Below are positions 7,879-26,229 of a stretch of 26,726 bases of DNA, one piece after another. The notes under the pieces are model-generated. The model was given only the letters and a program-made list of their open reading frames with translations. It was not told the origin of the DNA and did no database searches. The position numbers and the translations under genes were made by a program. The DNA comes from an uncultured Pseudomonadota bacterium (GTDB lineage Bacteria; SAR324; NAC60-12). Numbering within the stretch: the first letter of the stretch is position 1; each line of letters starts with the position of its first letter. Location: assembly GCA_913020725.1 (NCBI GenBank), contig CAJWCD010000038.1:1-26726 (forward strand), given 5' to 3'.

Positions 7879-8050
7879 TTTCATCAAACCTTTCATGGTA
7901 TGGATTGGAACTTCCCGTTTGGCAGAACCGGAAATGATTGACAAGCTTGTACGCTTTACAAAAATCTCAAATTAGCTTCTTCAGATTCAACATTTTGGAA
8001 TCACAGAGAACACAGAAGCAGTTCCATTATTCGACTCTGCTTCCTGACTT

Positions 8051-9172: not shown

Positions 9173-9179
9173 GAAGCGC

Positions 9180-10664: not shown

Positions 10665-10675
10665 CGTCGTGCGAA

Positions 10676-11167
10676 TTATCCGTAGTACCAGTTCAGCAAA
10701 ATACCTCGCGGGAAACGAATCCTCAGCACCAAATCGAAAAGCAGAAAGATCAGAAGGGGGGTGATGAGGGCATTAGTGAGTGCAACAAGGATGCGTTTTT
10801 CACCCCATAAAAAGCACATCAGGAACATCACCACTGCAATTGCGATAAACAGGTCCAGACTTGTTGTCAACCCGTAGAAGACAACAAGTAAGACCATGGA
10901 TCCCCAAGTCTGGTAAGGCTCGATCGGAATCTGTGCTGGTGGTGATCTGCGTAACTGGAGGGTGAGCAGGGCCACAAGCCCCAAATTGATGGCCATCAAG
11001 AAGATTGGAAACGCACGGGGCTGCATGCTTTTACCAACAATCATAGGTGGCGAAAGCTCAAGTTGCAGGGAGAGCCAAATCACGACGATGGAAAACACCG
11101 TGATGATCCCCGGCACCACATAAATCCTTGCCTTCACTGGACTGGGTGCTCCCGTGACAGGGAGCAC
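10676..11167 (-). CDS. tctB: Tripartite tricarboxylate transporter small permease
   Basis: 163 aa hydrophobic protein with PRAFP and C-terminal FDLVLRIRFPRG, lying between tctC and tctA. Confidence 0.85.
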   Translation of the reverse strand: MLPVTGAPSPVKARIYVVPGIITVFSIVVIWLSLQLELSPPMIVGKSMQPRAFPIFLMAINLGLVALLTLQLRRSPPAQIPIEPYQTWGSMVLLVVFYGLTTSLDLFIAIAVVMFLMCFLWGEKRILVALTNALITPLLIFLLFDLVLRIRFPRGILLNWYYG

Positions 11168-11194
11168 CTTAGCTACATGGATATAAGGAGGGGG

Positions 11195-12166
11195 CTAATT
11201 GATGAGCCCCATTTCCTTCAACGCAGGGCCGAATTCAGCAACCATGGATTTGATTTGCTCACCCCAAGGTCCGGAAGGCTGTGGCGAAGTCGAATCGAGG
11301 CCGGAATTCTTCAAATAAGCCTGATACATGGAATGATCCATGGCCTTCATTATGCCCTTCTCAAGTTCTGCGCGACGTGCTGCAGAGACTCCGGCATGGG
11401 TGACGAATCCACGGGTGGTCGAAAGCACAAGGTCAATCCCAAGTGCCTTGGCGGTTTTGGCCTTTGGAATCGGTGCCATGCCATTGTGAGCAAGGATGAT
11501 CAGCGGACAAATGTCTCCTGCTTCGACCGGAGCAGCAGCTTCAGACAGGTTCAAAGTACCCACGTCAATTGAACCAGCCACGAGTTGGGTTGCGAGTTCG
11601 CCGCCGCCCTTGAAGGGAAGGTAAGTCGGCATCGGCTGTCCGAACCGCTTTGCCCACAGGAAGACCGTGATGTGGTCAATCGTTCCCGTCTGGGTGCCGC
11701 CGAACTTGATCTTGTCGCCCCGCCTCATTCCGGCCACAAACGCTTCCGGAGTCTTATAGGGACTGGTCTTGCAATTGACCATCAGGATTTGAGGATCATT
11801 CGTGCCGCGAGCAAGCGGAGCCATATCCTCAACTCTTAGCTTGGTCTTGCCTTTGCCCATCGTCATGGCGTGGCCTACCGTAAAAGTCAGGATGGTGTTG
11901 CCATCCGCCGGTCGTGTCATGAAGTAGTTCATGGCCAGGGCACCGCCCCCGCCGCGCTTGTTCACAACCACCATGTCCTGTTTGAGGGTGCGGCGCGAAC
12001 GCAGCATCATCATACGTGAGTTGACATCCGTGCCCCCGCCGGCTCCGGCATGTGTGATGACTTCAATTGCCGGCTGACCGGCTATGGCTACCGAAACACA
12101 CGCCAGCAGCATCACACTGGTCAATGTGACTGCTCCAGCTTTCAGCATTCTTTTTGAGTGTCTCAT
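11195..12166 (-). CDS. tctC: Tripartite tricarboxylate transporter substrate-binding protein
   Basis: Signal peptide (MRHSKRMLK...VAIA), AGGGTD, VVNKRGGGG, PADGNT and PFKGGG. GGAG 7 nt upstream of the ATG at 12166. Confidence 0.88.
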   Translation of the reverse strand: MRHSKRMLKAGAVTLTSVMLLACVSVAIAGQPAIEVITHAGAGGGTDVNSRMMMLRSRRTLKQDMVVVNKRGGGGALAMNYFMTRPADGNTILTFTVGHAMTMGKGKTKLRVEDMAPLARGTNDPQILMVNCKTSPYKTPEAFVAGMRRGDKIKFGGTQTGTIDHITVFLWAKRFGQPMPTYLPFKGGGELATQLVAGSIDVGTLNLSEAAAPVEAGDICPLIILAHNGMAPIPKAKTAKALGIDLVLSTTRGFVTHAGVSAARRAELEKGIMKAMDHSMYQAYLKNSGLDSTSPQPSGPWGEQIKSMVAEFGPALKEMGLIN

Positions 12167-12209
12167 TAGAGAGCTCCATTTCATGGTTAAGAAGAATGTA
12201 CTCGATTGA

Positions 12210-12231
12210 GTCAAGCTACAATTAGCTTGAC
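12210..12231. repeat. Perfect 9-bp inverted repeat in the tctC/gntR intergenic region
   Basis: GTCAAGCTA-CAAT-TAGCTTGAC. Confidence 0.6.
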
Positions 12232-12238
12232 CGTGTTT

Positions 12239-12267
12239 AATATACAATATACAAATATTGGTGTCAA
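12239..12267 (-). promoter_or_regulatory. Sigma70 promoter for the tctCBA operon, overlapped by a probable GntR operator
   Basis: On the - strand, TTGACA (12267-12262), 17 bp spacer, TATATT (12244-12239). A tandem TATACAA repeat at 12241-12254 resembles GntR/FadR-type sites. Confidence 0.7.
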
Positions 12268-12290
12268 GAATATTTTTTTGCCTAATTGTA

Positions 12291-12941
12291 ATGCAGCCCA
12301 TCAACCGTCAACCATTGGCAATGCAGGTCGCTTCTCGCATTCGGGATTTGATCGCCACGGATCAGCTTCGTCTCGGAACCCCACTGCGCGAACAGGCACT
12401 CTGCAAGGAGCTTTCCGTCTCCCGGACCCCACTCCGTGAGGCGCTCAAGCAGCTCATCGCTGAAGGACTGGTCGAGCAAGTCCCGTATCATGGTGTGGCG
12501 GTGGCCAATCCGGATCTGCCCTCCGTTGAGCAGATGCTGGAATTGCTCGGTGCCTTGGAAGGGTTCTCGGGCGAATTGGCCTGTCAGCGGGCAACGGATA
12601 ACGAGATTGCGGAAATTCGCAAACTGACCGTGCAGATGCGTGAGGCGTATGATCGGCAGAAGCGTCTGCCTTACTACAAGCTCAACCAAGCGATACACCG
12701 GGCGATCGTGCAGTTTTCGAAGAATGACGAATTGATCCGGACACATGAGCGACTCAACTCACGGCTCTACCGCATCCGCTACCTCTCCAATCGTCGCACT
12801 GACCGCTGGCACACCGCCGTGGAAGAACATGACGGGATTCTGCAAGCATTGGCGGCGCGGAATGGCACGAAACTGAACCAACTGCTGCGGGAACACCTCG
12901 GCCACACCTGGACCAAGGTCCGGGACCACTACGAACCCTGA
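12291..12941 (+). CDS. GntR-family (FCD domain) transcriptional regulator
   Basis: LREQALCKELSVSRTPLREAL winged HTH; C-terminal NQAIH and EEH FCD motifs. Confidence 0.92.
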   Translation: MQPINRQPLAMQVASRIRDLIATDQLRLGTPLREQALCKELSVSRTPLREALKQLIAEGLVEQVPYHGVAVANPDLPSVEQMLELLGALEGFSGELACQRATDNEIAEIRKLTVQMREAYDRQKRLPYYKLNQAIHRAIVQFSKNDELIRTHERLNSRLYRIRYLSNRRTDRWHTAVEEHDGILQALAARNGTKLNQLLREHLGHTWTKVRDHYEP

Positions 12942-12954
12942 CTCAGGAACTTTC

Positions 12955-13953
12955 ATGCCCACCCCTACCCTAGGACTGCTGCTTGGTGACCCCAGCGGGA
13001 TCGGCCCCGAACTTTGTGCAAAACTGGTTGCGGAAGAGATGATGGTTAGCAACCGCCGGATCATGGTGATTGGAGACCGCATAGTTCTCGAAAAAGGGTG
13101 TGCCACGGCAGGAGTTAACTTGGACATCGAAACGGTTGACTCATCTAAAGACCTGCCGGAATCCGGAGTGGGTTTGCTGAACCACCCCCGGATTGCGGCT
13201 GAAACAATCCAAGTAGGCGCCGCAACTGTTGCCAGCGGGACCTTCGCCCTTGAAAGCCTCCGGACGGCGCTAGACCTTGCTCGAACTGGGAGCCTCGATG
13301 GTTTCACGTTTGCGCCCTTCAACAAGGAGTCTTTGCGACTGGGAGGCAACACCCACGAGGATGAACTGCGCTTTGCCGCAGAAGAGTTGCGCTTTGAGGG
13401 TTACTGTGGGGAACTCAACACCACCAAGGGTTTGTGGACCTCGCGGGTCACTTCCCACATTCCCCTCAAAGATGTGTCCGCGCAGATCACCCAGTCAGGA
13501 ATCGAAAAAGCAGTCAACTTGGCGCATCAAACATTGCTGGATGCCGGTGTGACGGAACCCCGAATTGCGGTTGCCGCGCTCAATCCCCATGCGGGAGACG
13601 GCGGCAATTTTGGCACGGAAGAAATCGACACCATCGGCCCCGCTGTGACTTCACTGCAGCAAAAGGGGTTTCCGGTGCAAGGGCCGTTTCCGGCAGATAC
13701 CGTTTTTGTCCGCACCACCCGAGGGGATTTTGATGCGGTTGTAACCATGTATCACGATCAGGGGCAAATCGCGTTGAAACTGCTGGGTTTTGACAGGGGC
13801 GTTACGGTTTTAGGGGGCTTACCTATTCCGATCACCACGCCTGCCCATGGAACCGCGTTCGACATTGCAGGAAAAGGCGTTGCCAGCGTGGATGCCCTCA
13901 AGGAAGCTTGGAACTTGCTAACCAATATGGTGACCTCACGACTCGTGGCTTAG
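12955..13953 (+). CDS. PdxA-family dehydrogenase (catabolic paralog)
   Basis: GDPSGIGPE, TSHIPL, LNPHAGDGG, GPFPADT, MYHDQG and TPAHGTAFDIAGKG. It lacks the GHTE motif and sits in a catabolic context. Confidence 0.85.
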   Translation: MPTPTLGLLLGDPSGIGPELCAKLVAEEMMVSNRRIMVIGDRIVLEKGCATAGVNLDIETVDSSKDLPESGVGLLNHPRIAAETIQVGAATVASGTFALESLRTALDLARTGSLDGFTFAPFNKESLRLGGNTHEDELRFAAEELRFEGYCGELNTTKGLWTSRVTSHIPLKDVSAQITQSGIEKAVNLAHQTLLDAGVTEPRIAVAALNPHAGDGGNFGTEEIDTIGPAVTSLQQKGFPVQGPFPADTVFVRTTRGDFDAVVTMYHDQGQIALKLLGFDRGVTVLGGLPIPITTPAHGTAFDIAGKGVASVDALKEAWNLLTNMVTSRLVA

Positions 13954-13982
13954 CCGGCCTTCAATCATTCAAGCAAACCACC

Positions 13983-14915
13983 ATGACCACTTCAGCATCA
14001 CCCAGCCCCTACACTGGGGTTTTTCCCATCGCACCCACTCCTTTCAACGAGGACGAATCACTCGACCTGCCTGGACAGCAGCGGGTGTTGGACTGCATGA
14101 TTGATCAAGGCGTGGACGGCATTTGCATTCTCGCCAACTACTCCGAGCAGTTCCTGCTCACAGACAAGGAACGAAATCTCCTGCTTGAGCTTTGCTTGAA
14201 ACATGTGGCAGGACGGGTTCCAGTGATTGTCACATGCAGCCATTTCAGCACTCGAGTGGCGGTGGAACGCGCCGTTCGCGCAGAAGTGGCCGGAGCCAAA
14301 ATGCTCATGCTCATGCCTCCGTATCACGGAGCGGCCTTGCGGGCAGATGAACAAGGCGCCTTTGAGCATTTTGCGAAAATCGCAGAAGCCATTTCCATCC
14401 CAATCATGGTGCAGGATGCCCCTTTGAGTGGCGTTGCCCTCTCCGTGAATTTGCTCGCCCGGATGGCCAAGGAACTGCCTCTGGTCAGCTATTTCAAGAT
14501 TGAAATGCCCGGAACTGCCGACAAACTGCGGACTCTGATCACGGTGAGCGGTGGCACGATTGCAGGGCCATTTGATGGCGAGGAATCGATCACCCTGATG
14601 GCTGATCTGGACGCAGGAGCCACTGGAACGATGCCGAGCGCCATGCTCCCGGACTTGATCAAGCCCGTTTTGGAGCAGCACCTCTCCGGACGACGAGATG
14701 AAGCCGCTGCACAATACGCCCGCATCCTTCCCTTGATCAACTACGAGAACCGACAGTGCGGCTTGCGGGCCACCAAGGCGGCAATGCTGGAAGGCGGGGT
14801 GATCAAGTCGGATACGATTCGACACCCACTACCTCCCCTTCATCCTGAAACTCGCAAAGGACTACTGGAACTGGCTGGTCCGTTGAATCCGCTTGTCTTG
14901 AGGTGGGGGCGCTGA
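13983..14915 (+). CDS. araD: DHDPS-family enzyme, close to L-2-keto-3-deoxyarabinonate dehydratase
   Basis: ILANYSEQF, MPPYHGA, IMVQDAP, YFKIE (Schiff-base Lys), DGEESITL, LINYENRQ and PLVLRW match the Azospirillum L-KDA dehydratase as I recall it. Confidence 0.75.
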   Translation: MTTSASPSPYTGVFPIAPTPFNEDESLDLPGQQRVLDCMIDQGVDGICILANYSEQFLLTDKERNLLLELCLKHVAGRVPVIVTCSHFSTRVAVERAVRAEVAGAKMLMLMPPYHGAALRADEQGAFEHFAKIAEAISIPIMVQDAPLSGVALSVNLLARMAKELPLVSYFKIEMPGTADKLRTLITVSGGTIAGPFDGEESITLMADLDAGATGTMPSAMLPDLIKPVLEQHLSGRRDEAAAQYARILPLINYENRQCGLRATKAAMLEGGVIKSDTIRHPLPPLHPETRKGLLELAGPLNPLVLRWGR

Positions 14916-14985: not shown

Positions 14986-15915
14986 TCAGAACGCACCTTT
15001 GTGCTGTCGGCGTGTGTTTCCGTCAAGCCCGCCGCTGACGGCCCATTCAGCAAATAATTCGGACTTGCGCTCGAAACGGCGCGGCTGCCAGTTTTCCGTC
15101 AAAAAATCCTCATCGGCATAGTATTCGGCGAGTCCGCCGCACGGGGAATGGACGTACCAGAAATACGCGGAGGAAATCGGATGCCGCCCGGGGCCAAGCT
15201 GTGTTTTCCACCCTTCGCGGCTGATGTGCAAACCTCCGCCGAAAACCTCGTGGATGTCCCTGACAGTGAACGCCACATGGTTCAGCTTGGATTTCCCTGT
15301 GGGACTCTTGAGCAGGAAGAGGTTGTGATGACCACCACGCAGTGCGCAGCGCAGGAAGGTGCCGTGCTGCGGATAGCGGTCGGACACCTGAAAACCCAGC
15401 ATTTCCGTGTAAAACAACTCTGCCTCAGCCAAGTCCGGGACAAAGAGCACCACATGGCCCACATGAATCGGAATTGCCCGCTCGTAAACGGGGCTGGGTG
15501 CGTCTAACCGGTTAGGTGATCCCGGCGTGTTCATGGCCGCTCCGGTAACCGTAACCGATTTGCGTTGCGTCAGCCGAAAAGACAGTGATAATCCGTTGGG
15601 GTCAGTGATCCGGACGAGGCCATCCTTCCCCTCTGTAAACAATGGGTTCCCAGTAATCCGTTTGATCAAGGCATCAAGGTTACGTTTTCCCTTCACCCCC
15701 CACACCACTTCGCGCAGAGTCGAACCGGATTCCATCGCCGGAGGCAGGAGCTTGGCGTCATGGGGTCGGAGGCACACCTCCGTCCCGTCCAGAGTCTCAA
15801 ACCGAGCGGAGTGTTTGGTGCTGGACGCCTTCCGGAGACCCCAATCGCTGAGGAACTTTCGGCACAATGCCATGTCCTCGACTCCGTAAGTGATTGCGTC
15901 AATTCCGGTTAGCAT
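14986..15915 (-). CDS. VOC-family protein, type I extradiol ring-cleavage dioxygenase-like
   Basis: Two-domain VOC with GHVVL, HHNL, NHVAF and GRHPISSAYFWY..P.G..AEY. The His/His/Glu metal triad and Tyr are present. Confidence 0.8.
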   Translation of the reverse strand: MLTGIDAITYGVEDMALCRKFLSDWGLRKASSTKHSARFETLDGTEVCLRPHDAKLLPPAMESGSTLREVVWGVKGKRNLDALIKRITGNPLFTEGKDGLVRITDPNGLSLSFRLTQRKSVTVTGAAMNTPGSPNRLDAPSPVYERAIPIHVGHVVLFVPDLAEAELFYTEMLGFQVSDRYPQHGTFLRCALRGGHHNLFLLKSPTGKSKLNHVAFTVRDIHEVFGGGLHISREGWKTQLGPGRHPISSAYFWYVHSPCGGLAEYYADEDFLTENWQPRRFERKSELFAEWAVSGGLDGNTRRQHKGAF

Positions 15916-15932
15916 GATAATTCCATCAGGTT

Positions 15933-16748
15933 TCAAATGGCAAGTGTTGCCGCAAGGTTGGCTAGTCCGCGAGTGACGCTGAAGGCGGTCAGGGCGGAAG
16001 TCTTTGGGTTTTCCGGAGAGGGCAATCCCTCCAAGACGATTTGAAAATTTCCTGCCTGCGACTGCACCTCGATTTCGTGAGTGTTGCGAGCAGCGTTTGG
16101 ATCGGCGCACAGTTCGACCTCAGTTTGATCAAATCCAAGTCCAGCGAGGGCGACGGTAGCTGCGACGTTCGCATTTTTCGGAAAGCGCAGTGCCGCCTCG
16201 CGTGCCGTACCGTGGTAGAAGACAGTGGCTTCCTGCAATTGATCGAGGTCGCAGGCCGACTCAGCAGGCGTGTCACGCCATGCAACAGGAGGTTTGCGTG
16301 AGCGATACCGCACTTGGGTCAGGCCGGAAAACCGCGCTGCCGCAAGCGCATCCACCGCGCCAATGGCCCCGGCGGGTAACAGGATTTGACGGCCCGACTG
16401 CACAGCAGCGGCTTTCAGGTGGTCGTACAACTCCGCATCGGCCAAGGCACCGATGGAGATGACCATCAAATCAGTTCCGGATTGCAGCACCGTTTCTCCG
16501 AACTCCCGGACCGCAGTGTGTCCCGCACACTCGGCGACGATACTGGGCAAGAGCGCCAGCAGGTCTTCCAAGCACTCCACCACGGAAACGGTCCGCCCCG
16601 CAGCTTTCTGAACCGCTGCTTGGCGTCCGGGCTTGCACAGGATTCCAACCACCTCAGCTCTGCCCTCCGAGGCAGCGAACAGGTGCCGCAACACCGTCCG
16701 GGAAATTCCGCCGTAACCAATCAATCCAACACGAGTCATCGGCTTCAT
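15933..16748 (-). CDS. nadX: L-aspartate dehydrogenase-like protein (NadX family)
   Basis: GYGGI, ECAGH, SIGALAD, GAIGAVD, FPKNANVAAT, NTHEI and NPKTS. Confidence 0.85.
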   Translation of the reverse strand: MKPMTRVGLIGYGGISRTVLRHLFAASEGRAEVVGILCKPGRQAAVQKAAGRTVSVVECLEDLLALLPSIVAECAGHTAVREFGETVLQSGTDLMVISIGALADAELYDHLKAAAVQSGRQILLPAGAIGAVDALAAARFSGLTQVRYRSRKPPVAWRDTPAESACDLDQLQEATVFYHGTAREAALRFPKNANVAATVALAGLGFDQTEVELCADPNAARNTHEIEVQSQAGNFQIVLEGLPSPENPKTSALTAFSVTRGLANLAATLAI

Positions 16749-18391
16749 TTCGTTCTCACCGGAGGTCCGGCGAAGGGAACCTTAAACGGCCCAATAGCCT
16801 GCATGTTCACCTCCACCAATGCGGGGCCATTGACAGCGAGGGCTTCCCGGAATTTTTCTCCAAACTCGGAAATGGAGGTGACGTTCCAGTGCGGCACGCT
16901 CAGCGACTCAGATAGCTTGGCAAAGTCCGGAAGTCGCAAATCCGTGAAGTAATGGCGTCCACCGAAGCGCGCATCCTGAATGTTGCGGATGACCCCGTAG
17001 CCCTGATCATTCATCACCAGCAGGGTCACATCGGCCTGTTCCTGCACGGCGGTGGCGAGTTCACCGATGTTGAGCATCAGCCCTCCGTCTCCACAGAGTG
17101 CGACCACCTTGCGCCCCTCGGCACCAAGGGCGGCTCCAATTCCCATCGGCATCCCTTGTCCGATCCCCCCGCCCAAGGCGTGGATGCCGTTGCGAGGAGC
17201 AAATATTTTCAGCAGACGATTACCCCAAGTGCTGTTCGAGATGGTCACATCACGCACCCAGAGTGCATCTTGCTGCAACTCAGTTTGCAAGGCATCAACC
17301 AAAGCGTCGTAGGGACCAAGGGTGGTCCGGAGCCGAACCTCCGCCGCTTTCCGTGCTTTCGCCAAATCTTGAGCGAAGGAGGGATCAATATGCAGTTGGC
17401 CTTGGAGTCGACCAGCCAATCCGGACAGCACCACGGCGCTGTCGCCACAGACGAATCCGGAGTTCGGGTACGACCGTCCATCCGCCGCAGAATTCGCGTC
17501 GCTCTGGAGCAAGGGGGCGGGCAAGGCTAGTTGATAATTCTTGGTTTCGTTGCTGCGCAGGCGTGAACCGACCACAAGCATCAGGTCGCATGTGCGGTAG
17601 AACGCCTCTGCGTCCGGGTTCATGTTGAATGCTCCCAGTGTGAGCGGATGATCTTCCGGTATGATTCCTCGTCCGTTAACGCTCGTGACCACGCCGACCC
17701 CGTATTCAACCAAACGCATTGCCCCCTCACGGGCATGTCGTGCGCCGCCGCCAAGCCAGAGCAGTGGGCGTTTTGCGGTGGATAGTCGTTCCGCAAGTTG
17801 ATCCAGAATCTGCTCTCCAGGATGTGAAATCGCCACTGGAAGCGTTGAAAAATCGGCTGGCATTGGCAACGTGGCGGCTTGTACGTCGGCGGGGATTTCA
17901 ACACTGACTGGTCCCGTCGGCGCGGTCAATGCGGTGCGCACCGCTTCTCGCAACACGCCCAGCGCGGACTCCGGAGACCAGACGCGATAGGCCGCCTTGG
18001 AAATCGCCCGCAGCATTTCCAATTGCGACTTCGCCTCGTGGATGTAGCCGCATCCCCGGTCGAGGTACGGCAAATCAATTTGTCCGGTGAGGTGCAACAG
18101 CGGCGTCCCTGCGGTTTCGGCTTCCACCAAGGCTCCGGCGGCATTGCCCGCTCCGGTTCCTGTACTGGTAAAAGCTACCCCCAGTTCACCACGAGTCCGG
18201 GCGTAAGCATCGGCCATGTTGAGAGCCCCGGCCTCGCCTCGGCTGGGCACGAAGCGAATCTTGTTTCGGCGTCCAATCGCATCAAGCATCGGCAGGTTGT
18301 GGATGCTGACCACGCCAAACGCCGTCTGCACCCCACAGGCTTCCAGAAATGTGGCAACAACCTCTCCGGTAGTGACGGTTTGCTCAGACAT
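16745..18391 (-). CDS. Thiamine-diphosphate-dependent enzyme (acetolactate synthase/decarboxylase family)
   Basis: RGEAGA catalytic Glu, STGTG and GDGG...NDQGYG ThDP motif. Start ATG 18391 overlaps the SDR stop. Confidence 0.9.
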   Translation of the reverse strand: MSEQTVTTGEVVATFLEACGVQTAFGVVSIHNLPMLDAIGRRNKIRFVPSRGEAGALNMADAYARTRGELGVAFTSTGTGAGNAAGALVEAETAGTPLLHLTGQIDLPYLDRGCGYIHEAKSQLEMLRAISKAAYRVWSPESALGVLREAVRTALTAPTGPVSVEIPADVQAATLPMPADFSTLPVAISHPGEQILDQLAERLSTAKRPLLWLGGGARHAREGAMRLVEYGVGVVTSVNGRGIIPEDHPLTLGAFNMNPDAEAFYRTCDLMLVVGSRLRSNETKNYQLALPAPLLQSDANSAADGRSYPNSGFVCGDSAVVLSGLAGRLQGQLHIDPSFAQDLAKARKAAEVRLRTTLGPYDALVDALQTELQQDALWVRDVTISNSTWGNRLLKIFAPRNGIHALGGGIGQGMPMGIGAALGAEGRKVVALCGDGGLMLNIGELATAVQEQADVTLLVMNDQGYGVIRNIQDARFGGRHYFTDLRLPDFAKLSESLSVPHWNVTSISEFGEKFREALAVNGPALVEVNMQAIGPFKVPFAGPPVRTK

Positions 18392-19175
18392 AGCGCGCGA
18401 CTCCTCCATCGACTTCCAAGGCGGCTCCGGTGATGAACCCCGCCTTTGGCGAGACCAGAAACGCAATCGCCGCCGCCGCCTCTTCGGGTGAGCCGAAGCG
18501 TCCCAGCGGGATGTTCCGCAGTTTTGCTTGCTCTGCCAGCCATGCGTCAAGACTGATGCCTTCGGAAGCTTGAGCCTTGTAGCGCCGCCGCCACTGCTCG
18601 GACTCGACGGTGCCGATCAGGATCGAGTTGACTCGGATGCCCTTGGGTGCAAACTCCCGGCTCATCGAGCGCAGCAGGTTTTGCACTCCGGCTCGAGCCG
18701 AAGAGGTCGCCACCAAGCGAGGCTCCGGTTGCCGGGAGAGCAGCGAATTGACAACGAGCATCGAGCCGACTAGCGACTTTTCCAACTCCGGCAGAAAGGC
18801 GCGGGTCGGACGGATCACGCTGAAATACTTGAGTTGCAATTCCGCCATCCAGTCTTCATCCTCGGTGTCGGCAAAGGTGCTGATGCGGGCCTGTCCAGCA
18901 TTGTTAACGAGGCCGTCCACCGCGCCAAACCAGCCGAGAACGGCTTCCCGGAATTCTGCCACAGCCTCGGCATCCAGCACATCGCACGGCAGTGCCCAGA
19001 CCGCATCCCCATACTGAGATTGGAATTCCGCCAGCGCGGTTTCCAGCCGTTCCGGATTCCGGGCGCAAAACGCGACCTTCGCCCCTTCCTCCAGCAAAGT
19101 TTTCACGGTAGCCCGCCCGATTCCAGCAGAACCTCCGGTGACGATGATCACGCGATCCTTGAGTTTTAAGTCCAT
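18384..19175 (-). CDS. SDR oxidoreductase (atypical active site)
   Basis: TGGSAGIG, NNAG, TSSAR at the YxxxK position, and PLGRFG. Confidence 0.88.
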   Translation of the reverse strand: MDLKLKDRVIIVTGGSAGIGRATVKTLLEEGAKVAFCARNPERLETALAEFQSQYGDAVWALPCDVLDAEAVAEFREAVLGWFGAVDGLVNNAGQARISTFADTEDEDWMAELQLKYFSVIRPTRAFLPELEKSLVGSMLVVNSLLSRQPEPRLVATSSARAGVQNLLRSMSREFAPKGIRVNSILIGTVESEQWRRRYKAQASEGISLDAWLAEQAKLRNIPLGRFGSPEEAAAAIAFLVSPKAGFITGAALEVDGGVARYV

Positions 19176-19186
19176 GATGTCCTTTG

Positions 19187-19975
19187 TTATCCTCGATGCC
19201 CTAATCGTTTGGAGATGGCTGCTGCCGCTTCCAGCACTCGGTCTTTGATTTCACCTTCCAAGGCTTCGCGGTCAAACACGGTTTCCGGACCCGTGATGTT
19301 GATGGCCGCAATGATCTTTCCGGAAGCATCCCGGATTCCTGCCCCAACACTGACCACCCCGGCCTCGAACGCAGACAGGCTGAGAGCGTAGCCCTGCTCC
19401 TGTTCCTTGCCAAGCAACCGATGGAGTTCCGGAACCGAGTTGGCCGTCTGTTTCGTGACCTGTTCGAGCATGGTGCCTTCGTACAATTGCTGCAACTCCG
19501 GCAGGGAAAGCTCGGAGAGCAGAACGCGCCCCATCGTGGTGGCATGGGCTGGAAAGCGCGTACCGACTCCCACGTTGCTCGCCAAGTGTCGGCGTCCGGC
19601 GATGCGCAGCAGGTACACGACCTCCCGATTATCCAGCACCCCCAAATGCACCGAGCAGCCGGTTTGTTCGTTCAACGTGTTCAGAAAAGGACGGACGACT
19701 TCCAACAATTCCTGCGAGGCCAAATACTCGAAGCCCAAGTTCAGCACCCGATTGCCTAGCTGATAGGTCTTGCGCTGCGGATGGCGCTCAAGGTACTTGA
19801 GTTTTTCTAACGTGTGCGCTAAACGGAACACCGTGGAACGAGGCAACTCAAGCACCCTTGCCAGTTCCGACAAACCCCACTCCTGCTGATTGTGGGTAAA
19901 CTTTTCTAGTAGCCGCATGCCTCGCACCAAACCGGGCACAAGATAACGGTCTTCCGGAGGGGATGTTTCCGTCAT
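19187..19975 (-). CDS. IclR-family transcriptional regulator
   Basis: GLSELARVLELPRSTVFRL HTH; GTRFPAHATTMGRVLL; AAINITGP. Confidence 0.92.
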   Translation of the reverse strand: MTETSPPEDRYLVPGLVRGMRLLEKFTHNQQEWGLSELARVLELPRSTVFRLAHTLEKLKYLERHPQRKTYQLGNRVLNLGFEYLASQELLEVVRPFLNTLNEQTGCSVHLGVLDNREVVYLLRIAGRRHLASNVGVGTRFPAHATTMGRVLLSELSLPELQQLYEGTMLEQVTKQTANSVPELHRLLGKEQEQGYALSLSAFEAGVVSVGAGIRDASGKIIAAINITGPETVFDREALEGEIKDRVLEAAAAISKRLGHRG

Positions 19976-20784
19976 TGTCTTTGTCGGGAAAAGAACTTCT
20001 GTAGAGCATTGTTGAACACTTCCGGTTGCTCGATGTAGCACGCATGTCCCGCTCCTAGAAGCGATTGATACCGAGCACCTTCAAGCATTTTGGCAATCTG
20101 CTGGCTGTGTGCTTCCGGAGTGACCTGGTCGGCACTGCCGCACAGCACCAAACAGGGTGTTTGCATTTGAACAACATCTGCTCCCAAATCTCCCTGCGCG
20201 AGCATCATTGTCGCCTGTCGGTAGCCGTCCGGACGAATCTGTGCCATTGCTTCGCGCACCTGCTCGACTTGTTCCGGAGTGGCTGAACTGGAAAGCAGAC
20301 GGGCCGCTCGTGCTTGAGCCACGCCTTCCGGACCCAACTGCTCCAAGTTGCGCAGGCGCTCCTGAACCTTCTCCGGAACCGGATCACCGGGCTGCATCTG
20401 GTAGCCTACTGCACATGAAGCCAACACCAAGGCTGTGGTGCGGGTGTACTTCCGGGCGAACGCCGCCGCCATCAGCGTCCCCAAGGAATGCCCCACCAAG
20501 CAACATTCCGGAATCTGCATCGCGTCCAGAAACGCGTCCAGTGCGTCGGCATAATCCTGTGCATCAGGTTGAGGCATATCCAGTGGGGTGGATTCCCCGT
20601 AGCCGGGAGCATCCCAAGCAAGTACCCGGAACTGACCGGATAGCACGGCAAGCTGGTTTTGCCACGAACCCGAGTTGGAGCCAATCCCGTGCAACAGCAC
20701 CAACGGGGAGCCGTCGCCGGCTTCTCGGAAGCTGAATTGCCGATTTCCTGCGGCAATCGTCCGGTGGTCAAACGACAGGTTCAT
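19972..20784 (-). CDS. Alpha/beta-fold hydrolase
   Basis: LLHGIG, WDAPGYG, GHSLG nucleophile elbow, Asp (ADQVTP) and His (AGHAC). Confidence 0.9.
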   Translation of the reverse strand: MNLSFDHRTIAAGNRQFSFREAGDGSPLVLLHGIGSNSGSWQNQLAVLSGQFRVLAWDAPGYGESTPLDMPQPDAQDYADALDAFLDAMQIPECCLVGHSLGTLMAAAFARKYTRTTALVLASCAVGYQMQPGDPVPEKVQERLRNLEQLGPEGVAQARAARLLSSSATPEQVEQVREAMAQIRPDGYRQATMMLAQGDLGADVVQMQTPCLVLCGSADQVTPEAHSQQIAKMLEGARYQSLLGAGHACYIEQPEVFNNALQKFFSRQRQ

Positions 20785-20791
20785 AGTCCGA

Positions 20792-21559
20792 TCAGTTGAA
20801 CACAAACCCGCCGTTGACAGGCAGGACTTGTCCGGTAACGAAACCTGCTGCTTCGGAGAGCAGAAAGCTTACCGTGCCCACCACATCCTCCGGGAACTGC
20901 GCACGCGGGATGGCCCGTCCAGTTTCGTAGAGGTCGTGCCGTTCCTGCGGAACGTAATCTGTAGATTCGCCCCGTACCAATCCCGGAGCCACGGCGTTGA
21001 CGGTGATGCCGTCCGCCCCAAGCTCACGGGCGAGCGAGCGGGTCATGGCGATCACCGCCCCCTTGCTGGAAACGTAGTGCAGCAGCTTTGGCGCTCCCCA
21101 CAGGGCTGTGTCCGAGGCGAGGTTCACCACCCGTCCGGATGCCGAGCGACGCAGCAAGGGCGCCAACGCCTTGACCATCAACCAAGTGCCCCGCACGTTG
21201 ACGCGCATCACCATGTCCCAAGTTTCGAGGTCGATTTCCTCAAAGGTCTTGCCGCCAATGCCTGTGGCGAGCGCGGCATTGTTGACCAAGCCGTCAATTC
21301 GCTCGTAGGATTTCGCCAGTTCTGCGGAAAGCGCGTTGACCGAATCCGGGTCCGCGACATCCACAGGGAAAAACCTCGCCGTGTGCCCAGCGTTCCGGAG
21401 TTCGATTTCGGCCTGCTGGCCCCACTCCGCGTTTTTCTCGGCAATCACGACCTCCGCACCCTGCCGACCACAATCCTTGGCAAAGGCTCGTCCCAGCCCG
21501 CGTCCGGCCCCGGTGACAACGACGATCCGATCTTTCAGCAGCGACATTGCGTCTGACAT
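20792..21559 (-). CDS. SDR oxidoreductase (classical)
   Basis: TGAGRGLG, NNAA, ASD and YVSSK. Confidence 0.9.
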   Translation of the reverse strand: MSDAMSLLKDRIVVVTGAGRGLGRAFAKDCGRQGAEVVIAEKNAEWGQQAEIELRNAGHTARFFPVDVADPDSVNALSAELAKSYERIDGLVNNAALATGIGGKTFEEIDLETWDMVMRVNVRGTWLMVKALAPLLRRSASGRVVNLASDTALWGAPKLLHYVSSKGAVIAMTRSLARELGADGITVNAVAPGLVRGESTDYVPQERHDLYETGRAIPRAQFPEDVVGTVSFLLSEAAGFVTGQVLPVNGGFVFN

Positions 21560-21560
21560 C

Positions 21561-22100
21561 TCAAAGCTGTTGACGCTTGATCTGCGCCAGCGGATGGTCA
21601 GGGGGATAGGTCGGTTTTATCGGCTGGGACGTTCCCAGCATCACGCACATCAACGCTTCCTCAATGCCCTCGTTGACCAAACCCCGGTACACTCCCGGAG
21701 GAATCGAGATCAGGTCGCGCTCCTTCAGGTAGGTCTCCCACGTCTCGCCCTCGGCCTCGAACATCAGGCGAATCTGGTTGCCCCGCAAAATGAAGAACAC
21801 CTCCTCCACATCAACATGAACGTGCATCGGCCCCTCGCAGCCAGCGGGCAACACCATTGTCGAGAAAGTGAAATGCTCGGCCTGCACGGTGTTTGTGTCC
21901 GCCGACACTCCGGCGGCTCCAGTGCCTAAGTAACGCATCTGCGCCCGGCGGTATTTCGGGTCGTAGTCCGCCTGGAACTTGAGCGCATTCCAGTCCAGCG
22001 TCCGGGTTTCGTAGCGGGCGATCTTGGCGTTCATCCACGATTCCAGCGACTCGCCTGCCGGAATCACGGGGCTTGCCGTGGTTTGGGGTTCTTTACTCAT
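21561..22100 (-). CDS. Cupin-domain protein
   Basis: GPMHVHVDVEEVFFILRG motif 1 and DLISIPPGVYRG motif 2. AAGGA RBS. Confidence 0.88.
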   Translation of the reverse strand: MSKEPQTTASPVIPAGESLESWMNAKIARYETRTLDWNALKFQADYDPKYRRAQMRYLGTGAAGVSADTNTVQAEHFTFSTMVLPAGCEGPMHVHVDVEEVFFILRGNQIRLMFEAEGETWETYLKERDLISIPPGVYRGLVNEGIEEALMCVMLGTSQPIKPTYPPDHPLAQIKRQQL

Positions 22101-22206
22101 ACAGTTCCTTGTTAGTGCATGTTTTCTCGAAGGGGCCTTCCATGTCCACGAATTCGCCCATGAGGTTTTCTTCCAGCCAGATCAGGGAGGGCCTGCCATC
22201 AGGCAT
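22093..22206 (-). pseudogene. 37-codon ORF; possible remnant of an FNR-type (FAD-binding) reductase
   Basis: MPDGRPSLIWLEENLMGEFVDMEGPFEKTCTNKELYE*. It resembles the PxGxxSxWL...G..V...GPFG segment of FNR-type reductases and overlaps both neighbours by 8 nt. Confidence 0.4.
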
Positions 22207-22993
22207 CTCCAAACGAGCGCGAGGGGAGGTAGTGCAAAACCTTGCGTTCCAGCACGATGACAGCGACATAGGCGAGCACGCCGATCAGCGTAAGCAGGAG
22301 GATGGAGACGAACACCATCGCGGTGTTGGCCGAACCCTCGCCGAACACCAGCAAGTAGCCCAGGCCGATGTTGCCGCCGACCATCTCGCCGACCACCACA
22401 CCGATCACCGCGAGTGTCGCGCCGACGCGCAGTCCCGAGAAGAGCGCGGGCATGGACGCCGGGAATTCGATTTTCCAGAAAATCTGCGAGCGTCGCGCCT
22501 TGAACGAGCGGGCGAGGTTGATCAAGTCCGGATCCACCGCCCGCAACGCCCCCAGCACGTTGACCATGATCGGGAAGAAGACAATCAGCACTGCAACCAG
22601 AATCTTCGGATAAACCGTATACCCGAACCAGAGGATGAAGAGGGGTGCAAACGCCACCTTGGGCGCGATCTGCAACGCCAGCAGGTAGGGGGAGAAGACG
22701 AGTTCGGCCCAGGGTGACATGCCCATGGCATACCCAACGACCATGCCGAGCAAGGCTCCCAGCACAAAGCCAGTCATCGTTTCCATCAAAGTGACGAAGG
22801 AGTGGAAAACCACCCGCTCGGTTTCGAACATGAAAAAAAACTCGTCATAAACCATAGAGACAGGAGGCACGATGTAGTGCGGTACCCCCAGCCACTCGAA
22901 ACCCCACTCCCAGCCAGCCAAGGCCACCACCAGCAAAGCCACACTGGCTATGATTCCGCGCCCCATGCGTTGGGCTCCTCCCTCGGAATTCAT
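22199..22993 (-). CDS. ABC transporter permease (SsuC/TauC type)
   Basis: QIAPKVAFAPLFILWFG, EAA-like loop, VVGEM and GLGY. Confidence 0.92.
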   Translation of the reverse strand: MNSEGGAQRMGRGIIASVALLVVALAGWEWGFEWLGVPHYIVPPVSMVYDEFFFMFETERVVFHSFVTLMETMTGFVLGALLGMVVGYAMGMSPWAELVFSPYLLALQIAPKVAFAPLFILWFGYTVYPKILVAVLIVFFPIMVNVLGALRAVDPDLINLARSFKARRSQIFWKIEFPASMPALFSGLRVGATLAVIGVVVGEMVGGNIGLGYLLVFGEGSANTAMVFVSILLLTLIGVLAYVAVIVLERKVLHYLPSRSFGDA

Positions 22994-23014
22994 AGTTGGC
23001 CTAGTCCTTCCAAC

Positions 23015-24004
23015 CTACTCAACAAACTCGTTGGTGTAGAGATCAGACAGGGGCAGGGAACGGCGTAGAATCCCTTGGTCAACATAGAACTTCTGCAAGG
23101 CCGCCAGCCGCTCAGGGTCCATGGCTCCCAGCACTTTCTGTCCGGGATAGACGTACTTGTTGTAGAGCCGGAAGGTGTGTTCCATTGCCTTCTCCTTGCC
23201 CTTGTGCTGCGGAATCGCCTTCACATACTCCACGGAGGCCGCTGCCGGGTCGTCCATCACGACCTTCAGCCCGCGCAGGGTCGCTCGCACCAGCTTCCGG
23301 ACCAGTTCAGGACGTTCACGGATGGTGGTGTCGGAAACGAGAATCGCCTGCGCCATGCTTTTGAAGTAATCATCCGCCGGGAATATGTTCACCTTCACGC
23401 CGGCTCCCTGTGCGATGGCGATCCAATCCGGAACTGCCGCCATAGCATCGGCCTTGCCTGCGATGAACAACTTCCAAGTGTTGGCCGGACCCGCCGCCTG
23501 TGCGTTGATGTCGTGCTTGTTCAGGCCCACGCTCGCCAACATGCCAAGCAAGGCGTAATAAGTGGTGTCCTGAAAACCCAAGGTAGTCACAGTCTTACCC
23601 TTGAGATCGGCAGGACTGTTGATCCCGCGATCGGCACGAGCCGCCAACAGCATCAAGGAACGACCTCCCAGCACCGCCACGGCCTTGACTGGAACCCCGT
23701 TCGCCCTCACGATCATGGAGGTGTCGCCAATTCCACCACCGATGACTGCGTTGCCCGCGCCCACCTGCTTGGCAACGTCAACTCCGCCTCTGGCGGTTTG
23801 GAACGTGACATCCAGTCCCTCCTCGTCGTAGTAGCCCAAGTGCTTGGCCAGCATCCACGGGCTGAAGGCAGGCAGGAAGGCTGGAGCGGGTAGCAGGTAA
23901 GTGATTTTCTCTGCGGCGTGAGCGGCACTCACCGCAGTCAGCAGAAGTCCCGTAGCCGCTAGTGCCATTAGGCTCTGAGTAAATTTTTTTCTGAGTTTAC
24001 GCAT
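23015..24004 (-). CDS. ABC transporter substrate-binding protein (NMT1/THI5/SsuA-like)
   Basis: Signal peptide ending AHA, GYYDEEGLDV, GGVDVAKQVGAG and DLKGKTV. AAGGAGA RBS. Confidence 0.9.
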   Translation of the reverse strand: MRKLRKKFTQSLMALAATGLLLTAVSAAHAAEKITYLLPAPAFLPAFSPWMLAKHLGYYDEEGLDVTFQTARGGVDVAKQVGAGNAVIGGGIGDTSMIVRANGVPVKAVAVLGGRSLMLLAARADRGINSPADLKGKTVTTLGFQDTTYYALLGMLASVGLNKHDINAQAAGPANTWKLFIAGKADAMAAVPDWIAIAQGAGVKVNIFPADDYFKSMAQAILVSDTTIRERPELVRKLVRATLRGLKVVMDDPAAASVEYVKAIPQHKGKEKAMEHTFRLYNKYVYPGQKVLGAMDPERLAALQKFYVDQGILRRSLPLSDLYTNEFVE

Positions 24005-24041
24005 ATTGTCTCCTTGGTTTGAGATTAGGTTCTCGAAATTC

Positions 24042-24842
24042 CTACTTGGCTGCTCCCAGTTCAAGATGGTCAATGTCGAGAGATTTCATCAAGTGACCAA
24101 TGTGGTCACTTAGCTGCTGTCGTCGTACAAGCGGGTTTTCCCGATCAGGGACATCAATCACCAACTCCTCGGTGATGTGTCCTGGGCGCTTGCTCATCAC
24201 CAGAACGCGGTCGGACAGCGCGGCCGCTTCGGCAAGATCGTGGGTGATTAACAGTGCGGTTTTTCCGTTTACTTTTATGGACACCGCTAAATCTTGTTGC
24301 AGCACCATTTTCGTTTGGGCATCCAGCGCGGAAAATGGTTCGTCAAGTAACAGTACCGAAGGTTCCAAGACAAGGGTACGAGCCAGTGCCGCTCGTTGCC
24401 GCATCCCTCCAGAAAGCTGGTGGGGGAAGTGATTTGCGAAATCGGCAAGATGACACTGACGCAACCAGTTCATGGCACGCTCTCTCTGTTCCGATCTCGA
24501 TACTCCCTGAATCTCCAACCCAAGCTCGACGTTCTCCCGAATCGAGCGCCACGGTAGCAGCAAGTCTTTCTGGAGCATGAACGCTACATGGGAACTCGGA
24601 CCAACAACGCGAGTCGCGTCCACGAACACCTCTCCTGCCGTGGGTTTATCGAGTCCGGACGCAAGATTCAGCAGAGTGCTCTTGCCGCAACCGCTGGGTC
24701 CGATCAGCGAGACGACCTCGCCATCCTTCACGCTCAAGGAAACCCCCTCGACCGCCGTGATGGTTTCCGGAGCCGTGCCACTGGAGTTGCGGAACTGCTT
24801 GGTGACGTTCCTGAATTCGAGCCGGGCTTCACTCACGGTCAT
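24042..24842 (-). CDS. ABC transporter ATP-binding protein (SsuB/TauB type)
   Basis: GPSGCGKST, LLPWRS, LSGGMRQR, LLDEPFSALD and ITHD. Confidence 0.95.
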   Translation of the reverse strand: MTVSEARLEFRNVTKQFRNSSGTAPETITAVEGVSLSVKDGEVVSLIGPSGCGKSTLLNLASGLDKPTAGEVFVDATRVVGPSSHVAFMLQKDLLLPWRSIRENVELGLEIQGVSRSEQRERAMNWLRQCHLADFANHFPHQLSGGMRQRAALARTLVLEPSVLLLDEPFSALDAQTKMVLQQDLAVSIKVNGKTALLITHDLAEAAALSDRVLVMSKRPGHITEELVIDVPDRENPLVRRQQLSDHIGHLMKSLDIDHLELGAAK

Positions 24843-25123
24843 TCTCCCAGCCGTCGCATCTCTGCTTGGAAGTTGGCCTCGGTCCAACGGCCGCTGTCCG
24901 GAGGGTTCACACCGGATTCATTGAGTCGTCCGACGATTCCGGGCAGGTCATAGACTTCATCGCCAAAGATTTCCTGAAGCGCATCCGCCAACGACTGTTC
25001 GTAGTCTGTCGGCACAGCAGAGCGGGTTTGCCACGGCAAAAGCGTGGGCGGGTCGTAGGTTTCGAGGTAGTCCATCCCGCCCTTGTTCTCGTGGGTCTTG
25101 CTCAGCCAGGGGTTCCAGTCCAT
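24839..25123 (-). CDS. Small protein, recombinase-like helix-turn-helix domain
   Basis: 94 aa with WQTR..PTDYE..LADAL...F..LN..GV....G.WT...F.AEM.RLG. Starts 5 nt after the Rieske stop and has an ATGA overlap with the ABC ATPase. Confidence 0.7.
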   Translation of the reverse strand: MDWNPWLSKTHENKGGMDYLETYDPPTLLPWQTRSAVPTDYEQSLADALQEIFGDEVYDLPGIVGRLNESGVNPPDSGRWTEANFQAEMRRLGE

Positions 25124-25128
25124 GCGTT

Positions 25129-26157
25129 TTAACCGTGAGAGGCTTGGGCTTCCACCTGCTGTTGTGCCAGCAGCCACAAATCCCGGCGAATCTTGGTCAA
25201 CCCGGCATCGTGCTGGTAGAGCGTTTCCTGAGTCCGGGCACTGTCCGGCATCGCTTCCAGCACTCCCCGATCCTGCTCCAGCACCTCCCAGTGCAAGCCC
25301 TCCAGCCGGTTCTTGTAGAGAAACCGCCAGACATCGCGCTCCCAGCCGGAGACCTTGCGCACCCGCCAGAAATAGACCTGACAGACCTGCTCGGTCACGG
25401 GCGTGACAAACCCAATGATCGTGAAATTGCCACCCGGCCCAGCGTTCTTGCGGTAGGGGATCGCCAGTCGCATCCAGAAAGCTCCGGTGTCGGCAAATTC
25501 CACCCAGTCGAAATTCACACCGCGCTGCCCCTCTTTCTCAAACATCCAACCTTGCCCCGTTTCGGACAGCCGCATTTTCGCGGATTTGTCGCCCATCCCC
25601 ATTGAGTGCGATTTTGCATGCAGATATGATCCGTGCATGGGATCCATCACGTTGTCGATGGCGTAGCGGTAGTTGCACCTCCAGAGCGCGGTGCAGAGGA
25701 AACTGCCGTAAGCATCATCAGTGAGTTCCTCTGGAAGTTGCAACTCCACAGGGTCAGGCTGCTGTTCGTCTCCAAAATACGCGAAAATCGCCCCCTGCAC
25801 CTCCTGAGTCGGATAGCTCCGCACCTTGCGCTTGCCCTCCAGCGGGCATTTTTCCTGTGCTGGAACCCGGACCACCACGCCCTCATGGTTAACCTCCACG
25901 CCATGGTACCAGCAGGCCAGCCGATCTCCCAGATTCCACCCCAGAGAAAGACGCGCTCCCCGGTGCGGACAGCGATCCGCAATCACATGCGGGTTTCCGG
26001 AAGCGTCTCGCCAAATCGCCAAATCCTCGCTTAAGCGCGTGACCCCCAGCGGGTTCTCCTGCACCATCCAGCTCGGTGCCACCGGATACCAACGTTGACG
26101 CAGCCCTCGGTTGAGCAGCTGCTCAACCTCCTCACGTTTGGCCTTGCCCACCGTCAT
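25129..26157 (-). CDS. Rieske non-heme iron aromatic oxygenase, catalytic subunit (VanA/KshA-like size)
   Basis: CPH...CWYHG Rieske ligands; DNVMDPMHGSYLH and EQD mononuclear iron site; 342 aa. Confidence 0.92.
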   Translation of the reverse strand: MTVGKAKREEVEQLLNRGLRQRWYPVAPSWMVQENPLGVTRLSEDLAIWRDASGNPHVIADRCPHRGARLSLGWNLGDRLACWYHGVEVNHEGVVVRVPAQEKCPLEGKRKVRSYPTQEVQGAIFAYFGDEQQPDPVELQLPEELTDDAYGSFLCTALWRCNYRYAIDNVMDPMHGSYLHAKSHSMGMGDKSAKMRLSETGQGWMFEKEGQRGVNFDWVEFADTGAFWMRLAIPYRKNAGPGGNFTIIGFVTPVTEQVCQVYFWRVRKVSGWERDVWRFLYKNRLEGLHWEVLEQDRGVLEAMPDSARTQETLYQHDAGLTKIRRDLWLLAQQQVEAQASHG

Positions 26158-26190: not shown

Positions 26191-26229
26191 AATGTTTCGT
26201 ATAAAAAACATTGTTTTGCATATAATACA
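26191..26229. promoter_or_regulatory. Tandem imperfect palindromes, probable IclR operator
   Basis: TGTTTCGTATAAAAAACA (26193-26210) and TGTTTTGCATATAATACA (26212-26229) are 14/18 identical. The first extends to AATGTTT-N8-AAACATT. Confidence 0.6.

Follow-up and report, generated by a model that had tools for sequence, protein, structure and literature searches.

The stretch of DNA analyzed here (the window, 26,726 nucleotides) is contig C38 of the SAR324 genome G000 (3.4 Mb, 93% complete), and it contains a catabolic gene block whose probable substrate is kynurenic acid. The block consists of 13 open reading frames on the minus strand between positions 14986 and 26157, all of which match a Pfam family (13/13), and their order from 26157 downward is given in Table 1. 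With the start codons as chosen, four of the 12 junctions overlap (−4, −4, −8, and −4 nt) and the remaining gaps are 1–98 nt, the first gap being 5 nt with the start of the HTH_62 gene placed at 25123. An earlier note on this DNA had described 13 co-oriented, packed genes, several of them overlapping, with their own ATP-binding cassette (ABC) importer and IclR regulator, and this description is borne out, the ATPase, NMT1 binding protein, permease, and IclR each being found by Pfam. That note overlooked the 94-residue HTH_62 gene, which is a conserved cluster member, as well as the fact that no Rieske reductase, ferredoxin, or aldehyde dehydrogenase gene lies within the 13-gene block. None of the 13 frames is truncated, and their catalytic residues are intact and nearly invariant among orthologs.

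Table 1. Genes of the catabolic block in their order from 26157 downward, and the upstream palindrome (SDR, short-chain dehydrogenase/reductase; ThDP, thiamine diphosphate).
Feature	Position	Strand	Predicted role and basis
Rieske oxygenase, VanA_C type	25129..26157	-	predicted kynurenate 7,8-dioxygenase; Pfam Rieske/VanA_C
HTH_62 (PF20552) protein, 94 residues	24839..25123	-	predicted Rieske small subunit; complex prediction
ABC ATPase, TauB/SsuB-like	24042..24842	-	profile matches
NMT1/SsuA-type solute-binding protein	23015..24004	-	profile matches; PDB matches distant (E 2e-13)
ABC permease	22199..22993	-	Pfam match
Cupin	21561..22100	-	predicted pyridine-ring-cleaving dioxygenase; H93/H95/E99 and Arg139
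SDR1, classical YxxxK	20792..21559	-	predicted cis-dihydrodiol dehydrogenase; Y162, K166
Alpha/beta hydrolase	19972..20784	-	predicted amide hydrolase; triad S100-D219-H247
IclR-family regulator	19187..19975	-	PcaR/PobR-like, under cut-off; present in 74/80 loci
SDR2, atypical T157xxxR161	18384..19175	-	predicted C=C reductase; PRK07062
ThDP enzyme, PRK07064	16745..18391	-	predicted 2-oxoacid decarboxylase; GDG...N motif
Aspartate dehydrogenase, NadX family	15933..16748	-	predicted iminosuccinate/aminofumarate to L-aspartate; PRK13303 models
VOC extradiol dioxygenase	14986..15915	-	predicted 7,8-dihydroxykynurenate 8,8a-dioxygenase
Operator-like palindrome TGTTTC-N6-GAAACA, tandem	26193..26229	.	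candidate IclR site; motif counts

In the Rieske oxygenase, the cluster residues C63, H65, C82, and H85 and the Fe-site residues D172, H175, H180, and D296 are invariant among 30 sequences. The best PDB matches are the carbazole and phthalate dioxygenases, which are weak (E 1e-20) and cover the N-terminal half only. The enzyme shares the Rieske and mononuclear Fe motifs and the VanA_C domain with oxygenases of the VanA/CarAa/phthalate-dioxygenase type, such as carbazole 1,9a-dioxygenase and 2-oxoquinoline 8-monooxygenase. Unlike these, which are not known to have a second subunit, it is predicted to bind the HTH_62 protein. Complex prediction for the HTH_62–Rieske pair gave a score of 0.84, compared with 0.00 for the best of three controls, with partner pLDDT (predicted local distance difference test) values of at least 89 and a contact agreement of at least 96% in the runs. 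The mark for this score is reached by 116/157 solved and 2/215 mismatched pairs, counts that apply only approximately with the alignments used here. The HTH_62 family is annotated as a recombinase-like DNA-binding helix-turn-helix protein, and a PDB sequence search returned no solved relative; the modeled complex instead predicts that the protein binds the Rieske enzyme as a small subunit.

The two SDR enzymes differ in their active sites. SDR1 has the classical YxxxK motif, with Y162 and K166 in 72/72 aligned orthologs, whereas SDR2 departs from it, with T157 and R161 in 76/76. SDR2 scores 377 bits with PRK07062, for which the equivalog cut-off is 266 bits. Its best PDB match is the ortholog Q9HYA2/3LF1, presumably PA3507 of Pseudomonas aeruginosa PAO1, and in an alignment its motif lines up with the catalytic region of peroxisomal trans-2-enoyl-CoA reductase (1YXM). 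From its sequence, SDR2 is predicted to be a C=C reductase with an enoyl-reductase-like center. The VOC protein has the His-His-Glu metal triad with second-sphere His and Tyr that defines type I extradiol dioxygenases, with H154, H197, H213, H245, Y254, and E264 each invariant in 72–73 aligned orthologs, and its PDB matches are extradiol dioxygenases. The ThDP enzyme, which exceeds the PRK07064 cut-off (862 vs. 495 bits), carries the GDG...N motif and E53 (79/79), motifs that would fit a 2-oxoacid decarboxylase at the level of the class and not of the substrate. The aspartate dehydrogenase passes the PRK13303 models and has H224 in 77/77 orthologs. In the cupin, H93, H95, E99, and Arg139, the last in place of the usual third His, are invariant among 52 sequences, so that it lacks the motif-2 His of the 3-His or 3-His-1-Glu cupin dioxygenases; its nearest PDB sequence is a quercetinase, a weak match. 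PDB searches with the binding protein, cupin, VOC protein, and ThDP enzyme found no close characterized homolog, and Atlas look-ups gave only the same families.

The block shares the logic of the meta-cleavage pathways (bph/xyl/hsa), in which Rieske, SDR, VOC, and alpha/beta hydrolase enzymes are combined. However, the hydrolase is closest to the PcaD enol-lactonase (131 bits) and RutD models, and the meta-cleavage C–C hydrolases BphD and HsaD score lower and under their cut-offs (63/462 and 73/400 bits, respectively). The meta-cleavage hydratase/aldolase pair is absent from the block, which has the ThDP enzyme, a second SDR, the cupin, and the aspartate dehydrogenase instead. In its mode of operation it resembles a meta-cleavage pathway, the lower half being different. 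Enzymes of the ThDP and NadX families are indeed foreign to classical meta-cleavage, as had been pointed out in the earlier note, yet they are not anomalies, because they fit the classical kynurenate pathway.

The gene set is conserved together elsewhere, as that note had anticipated. Among the best 80 of 152 loci anchored on the ThDP enzyme, mostly from Variovorax and with at most 10 kb on each side, SDR2 was found in 77, aspartate dehydrogenase in 76, cupin, SDR1, and hydrolase in 75 each, IclR and VOC in 74 each, Rieske in 70, and HTH_62 in 59, presence being a match over more than half of the query and a few of the SDR matches being cross-matches. The ABC importer of the window lies outside this conserved core (10–13/80 loci, with major facilitator superfamily transporters in others). 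Relatives carry additional genes, namely an aldehyde dehydrogenase (75/80) and a PDR-type reductase (65/80), with a phenol-hydroxylase-type flavin adenine dinucleotide (FAD) monooxygenase (39/80) and a Rid imine deaminase (13/80, and in further clusters) as optional members. The cluster spans Proteobacteria and Streptomyces, recurring in records of Acinetobacter baumannii, Klebsiella pneumoniae, Caballeronia, Novosphingobium, Paracoccus, Pseudosulfitobacter, and Streptomyces, and in the genus Pseudomonas (L008, L176–L179). The A. baumannii cluster is A1S_0945-0958, and that of P. aeruginosa is presumably PA3498-PA3514. The core enzymes are mostly 40–70% identical to those of these uncharacterized clusters, with values of ~30% in some for the VOC protein or the cupin. 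The clusters differ in the order of their genes, in their transporter, and in the electron donor. Because different lineages use a ferredoxin with an FAD reductase, an FAD oxidoreductase with a flavodoxin, or a PDR-type protein, the electron donor is exchangeable. The SAR324-type copy is limited to 13 genes: it has no aldehyde dehydrogenase or reductase gene and none for the FAD monooxygenase or the Rid protein of the orthologous clusters. Two sister genomes contain the same reduced set; the cluster marker is above the cut-off in 6/88 genomes of the phylum, and the ThDP protein is 84% identical to the L002 copy, from a genome of the same family.

The biochemistry of bacterial kynurenate breakdown dates back to the 1960s. 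The classical kynurenate ("quinoline") pathway, which goes back to the Hayaishi and Dagley laboratories of that decade, proceeds by 7,8-dihydroxylation, dehydrogenation, 8,8a-cleavage, reduction with NADPH, decarboxylation, and aldehyde oxidation (Enzyme Commission (EC) numbers 1.14.99.2, 1.3.1.18, and 1.13.11.10, followed by later steps) and ends in 2-oxoglutarate and aspartate. Enzymes of the classes required to dihydroxylate the ring, dehydrogenate the diol, and carry out the extradiol cleavage are encoded by the window block, as are, by class only, a C=C reductase and a 2-oxoacid decarboxylase. The enzyme classes and the genome co-occurrence described below indicate that the block likely belongs to the kynurenate pathway, and the probable function of this conserved import-and-breakdown block is the conversion of kynurenic acid (4-hydroxyquinoline-2-carboxylate) into 2-oxoglutarate, L-aspartate, and CO2.

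In the proposed route, where steps 2–7 and the end products rest on 1960s biochemistry, kynurenate would be imported by the ABC transporter (step 1), the Rieske oxygenase with its HTH_62 small subunit would add O2 at C7–C8 (step 2), and SDR1 would convert the product to 7,8-dihydroxykynurenate (step 3), the C8–C8a bond of which would be cleaved by the VOC enzyme (step 4). The side-chain C=C bond would then be reduced by the atypical SDR2 (step 5), the 2-oxoacid decarboxylated by the ThDP enzyme (step 6), and the aldehyde oxidized by an aldehyde dehydrogenase to 5-(2-carboxyethyl)-4,6-dihydroxypicolinate (step 7). The cupin would open the pyridine C4–C5 bond of this compound (step 8), and the hydrolase would split the resulting amide into 2-oxoglutarate (C5) and aminofumarate/iminosuccinate (C4-N, step 9), the imine being either reduced to aspartate by the aspartate dehydrogenase or deaminated by the optional Rid protein (step 10). 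Aminofumarate/iminosuccinate is the substrate class of both the aspartate dehydrogenase and Rid. Transcription would be controlled by IclR through an 18-bp palindrome, and the SAR324-type copy would borrow the electron donor and the aldehyde dehydrogenase from elsewhere. The sequence of reactions up to aldehyde oxidation and the products are those of the classical pathway, from which the window differs in having no reductase or aldehyde dehydrogenase; the lower part made up of cupin, hydrolase, and aspartate dehydrogenase is our proposal, and we infer the gene-to-step assignments, steps 8–10, and the regulation throughout. The fit is step for step with no enzyme left over, and the carbon balance closes (C10 = CO2 + C5 + C4). 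The reading of the locus in the earlier note as an unsolved pathway for an N-heterocyclic aromatic compound stands and is narrowed here to kynurenate. The joint reading, in which the block is a complete, never-assigned kynurenate catabolon with a Rieske oxygenase and a new type of HTH_62 subunit, a 2-His-1-Glu/Arg cupin opening the C4–C5 bond, and an aspartate dehydrogenase capturing iminosuccinate, is held tentatively, at somewhat less than an even chance.

In line with that note, which knew of no assigned substrate, searches of PMC-CC and bioRxiv on the cluster, on kynurenate, and on A. baumannii locus tags gave no assigned substrate among the matches listed, and no genes assigned to the kynurenate pathway (subscription journals and supplements fall outside this scope). 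No function is given for PA3505 in the accessible parts of PMC9732424 and bioRxiv 313502, nor for the cluster in those of PMC3758355 and PMC9162365. For step 10, a precedent for both solutions comes from human ASPDH and a fungal Rid-family enzyme, which, according to the portion available of bioRxiv 10.64898/2026.06.05.730449, act on the enamine 2-aminomuconate. There, too, the enamine to be removed by an enzyme of one of these families arises from ring cleavage in the catabolism of tryptophan; substrate and branch are different, and bacterial clusters are unmentioned in the parts of that preprint covered. Acinetobacter baumannii ATCC 19606 carries the cluster genes, as seen in excerpts of PMC4328036 and PMC5757984, with the same gene order in L103, and is reported in part of a review (PMC10732645) to grow on kynurenic acid. 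Accumulation of kynurenate by Pseudomonas putida, mentioned in the available text of bioRxiv 2024.10.04.616593, was not used as evidence.

A prediction of the kynurenate assignment, fixed before testing, was that the cluster would be present in kynurenine-making genomes without kynureninase. In the family of Variovorax (251 genomes, completeness filter 95), the cluster marker was found in 28 genomes, kynA (tryptophan dioxygenase) in 171, and kynU (kynureninase) in 166. The marker was present in 10/11 kynA+/kynU− genomes, compared with 15/160 kynA+/kynU+ and 3/80 kynA− genomes, and the Fisher p value of 7e-9 for this association overstates it because kin are not independent. A lenient KYNU_C search gave nothing in nine of the 11 genomes and weak matches in G367 and G507 (30 and 24 bits, compared with 127 for a true kynU), the match in G367 sharing 30% identity with a divergent enzyme of class V; without these two, the cluster is present in 8/9 kynA+/kynU− genomes. 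In a recA tree built for 28 selected genomes, namely the 11 kynA+/kynU− genomes and 17 others (mostly cluster-positive), the former are scattered, with no clustering compared with shuffles, and the label changes 10 times, at least four of these changes being forced by well-supported branches. A full or contig-limited cluster lies at the marker in 6/6 genomes checked.

In six of the 10 kynA+/kynU− genomes with the cluster (G339, G363, G367, G458, G499, and G517), an aromatic aminotransferase gene (PRK09257) is located within the kynA operon, in four of them with kynB and/or Rid; this is not the case in G315, G327, G352, and G507. The kynU+, cluster-positive genome G537 also has the aminotransferase in its kynA operon, cluster-positive G311 has it beside kynB, and in G489 kynA is positioned tail-to-tail with the reductase gene of the cluster. 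The linkage of kynA and the aminotransferase, without kynU, to the cluster points to kynurenate itself. Matches to the kynA-linked aminotransferase come from cluster-positive genomes in 10 of the top 11 cases and in three of the next 95, at a cut-off chosen afterwards on a continuous gradient, the query itself being from a cluster-positive genome. This aminotransferase is accompanied by a separate Rid (YjgF) subfamily (L120, L122, L156, L158, L159, and L161), the members of which are 75–84% identical among those compared and ~25% identical to the Rid of the cluster.

The palindrome TGTTTC-N6-GAAACA (18 bp) is located at 26193-26210 with one mismatch, 36 nt upstream of the Rieske start, and is followed by a weaker tandem copy at 26212-26229. 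Common to the window and many orthologous clusters, it is present in 55/103 cluster loci when up to one mismatch is allowed (57 sites in 2.12 Mb), compared with none in 52 control loci (0.44 Mb) and three sites after a single base shuffle of the cluster loci. The window, L001, and L002 are the sequences from which the motif was built, and Variovorax contributes many of the cluster loci. On these motif counts, it is likely the IclR operator. Counts of sigma-70 promoters and terminators were no higher than chance.

Several cluster copies deviate from the common layout. Genome G000 itself contains a second permease-cupin-SDR1-hydrolase-IclR-SDR2-ThDP(start) segment (G000:C178:1-4880, L097), 84% identical to the window at the DNA level, which may be a paralog or a sister-species contig in the bin. 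A non-orthologous SDR (~30%) stands at the operon end in place of SDR2 in L092–L094, L163–L165, and L180, and L092 also has no aldehyde dehydrogenase. In L179 (G107), the binding-protein and permease segments form three tandem repeats, reflecting duplication or misassembly. In L106 (Novosphingobium resinovorum pSA2), a TonB receptor and a GH3 glycosidase gene precede the cluster, hinting at a substrate glycoside, and a SIR2-family gene interrupts it.

Apart from the retrospective cut-off for the aminotransferase, several observations weigh against kynurenate as the substrate or against parts of the proposed route. The kynA neighborhoods surveyed for the aminotransferase are those of cluster-positive genomes, and the kynA-linked enzyme is absent from eight kyn loci of seven cluster-positive Pseudomonas genomes. 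Genome G321 is a counter-example. Among 201 genomes of the genus Pseudomonas (including the unpublished genomes G183, cluster-positive, and G232, kynA-positive), the cluster is weakly tied to kynA (7/17 vs. 40/184, p 0.08), and all 47 kynA+ genomes are also kynU+, leaving zero kynA+/kynU− cases. Among 191 alphaproteobacterial genomes, the cluster occurs in one of three kynA+/KYNU_C− genomes, and in the positive one (G724) a divergent class V pyridoxal phosphate (PLP) enzyme gene that may encode a kynureninase adjoins kynA. This PLP enzyme (L185:6030-7226) was missed by KYNU_C and by BLAST against true kynU and is possibly an unrecognized kynureninase. In genome G000, kynA, a gene resembling those of arylformamidases, and two kynU genes (on C15 and C37) are all unlinked, and the kynA-linked aminotransferase has no match, so that the substrate would have to be imported; a second kynA (G000:C82:11484-12253) matches in two frames and looks frameshifted. 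No ortholog of the aldehyde dehydrogenase or PDR reductase was found in G000 or its sister genomes G063 and G020. The best aldehyde dehydrogenase match in G000 is 37–39% identical, and queries with PDR, ferredoxin, and FAD-reductase sequences gave weak matches only (26–33%); generic ferredoxins and aldehyde dehydrogenases are encoded. The cupin model (pLDDT 73.5) matched generic cupin barrels only in a fold search, leaving the role of this enzyme without structural support, and the palindrome was not found at the kyn loci examined, which gives no regulon link.

The same chemistry could serve another 4-hydroxyquinoline-2-carboxylate (xanthurenate or 6-hydroxykynurenate), or a glycoside of such a compound, as the main natural substrate, kynurenate then being a co-substrate. 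In this case the flavin monooxygenase encoded at 39/80 loci would hydroxylate C7 and funnel xanthurenate in, and the receptor and glycosidase genes in front of the Novosphingobium copy would suit a glycoside. In addition, 10/17 cluster-positive Pseudomonas genomes are without kynA, suggesting that the substrate is often external. However, the window has no FAD monooxygenase, an SDR of the cis-dihydrodiol dehydrogenase type is needed for an unhydroxylated ring, and the linkage of the cluster to kynA and the aminotransferase without kynU points to kynurenate, which makes another main substrate rather improbable. An unrelated aromatic or N-heterocyclic acid, with the association with kynureninase loss reflecting shared lifestyle or genome size, would be compatible with an association that is weak or inconclusive beyond one family, with an NMT1 binding protein only distantly like pyrimidine binders, and with the lack of any step pinned by a close characterized homolog. 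This explanation is improbable given 10/11 vs. 15/160 across scattered lineages, the aminotransferase–kynA operons, and the abutment of kynA and the cluster in G489. Enzymes of the ThDP, Rieske, and extradiol types likewise take part in the riboflavin/lumichrome pathway (PMC12746152), but this pathway needs a P450 and a xanthine oxidase, neither of which is present here.

Independently of the substrate, the SAR324 copy could be incomplete or decaying after loss of its reductase and aldehyde dehydrogenase, in line with the lack of both orthologs in G000, G063, and G020, the broken transporter region of L002, and the missing ABC genes of L001. Decay nevertheless appears unlikely, since the 13 frames are full-length with intact catalytic residues, the same trimmed set is present in two sister genomes, the donor is exchangeable among lineages, and G000 encodes generic ferredoxins and aldehyde dehydrogenases. 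The aspartate dehydrogenase might, finally, serve nicotinamide adenine dinucleotide (NAD) synthesis outside the catabolic route, a function for which its family is annotated and with which a pnuC gene near the A. baumannii cluster would agree. The quinolinate synthase NadA was not found in the 93% complete G000, which makes a role in NAD synthesis unlikely, and the enzyme is kept in the cluster at 76/80 loci; this alternative is very improbable. A nadB-like match below the cut-off is located on C203 of G000.

Elsewhere in the window, positions 7042-14915 hold a separate sugar-acid-type module, the minus strand of which encodes an AP-endonuclease-2 TIM barrel protein, a dehydratase of the enolase family, and TctABC. 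These minus-strand genes are divergent from PdxA-like and DHDPS-family genes, the end of which meets the VOC gene tail-to-tail. Two convergent FGGY carbohydrate kinase genes with overlapping ends lie at 176-3204, one of them above the xylulokinase XylB cut-off. Contigs from four seawater RNA libraries extend over 20–25 of 30 bins; contigs cannot show transcription and were not used as evidence.

New in this analysis are the kynA/kynU test, the aminotransferase operons, the predicted HTH_62 subunit, and the likely operator. With each gene assigned to a proposed step, three orphan EC numbers and the lower pathway become testable. If the assignment is correct, it would provide a function for a cluster found in common pathogens and soil bacteria and would explain many of the "aspartate dehydrogenases" outside NAD synthesis, and the Pfam family HTH_62, now mislabeled as recombinase-like, would be re-annotated as an oxygenase subunit. 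Kynurenic acid is described in the accessible part of bioRxiv 10.64898/2026.06.05.730449 as an immunoregulatory tryptophan metabolite. With a functional pathway, A. baumannii, K. pneumoniae, and P. aeruginosa could feed on a signal of the host's immune and nervous systems, and the diet of marine SAR324 bacteria would gain an N-heterocycle.

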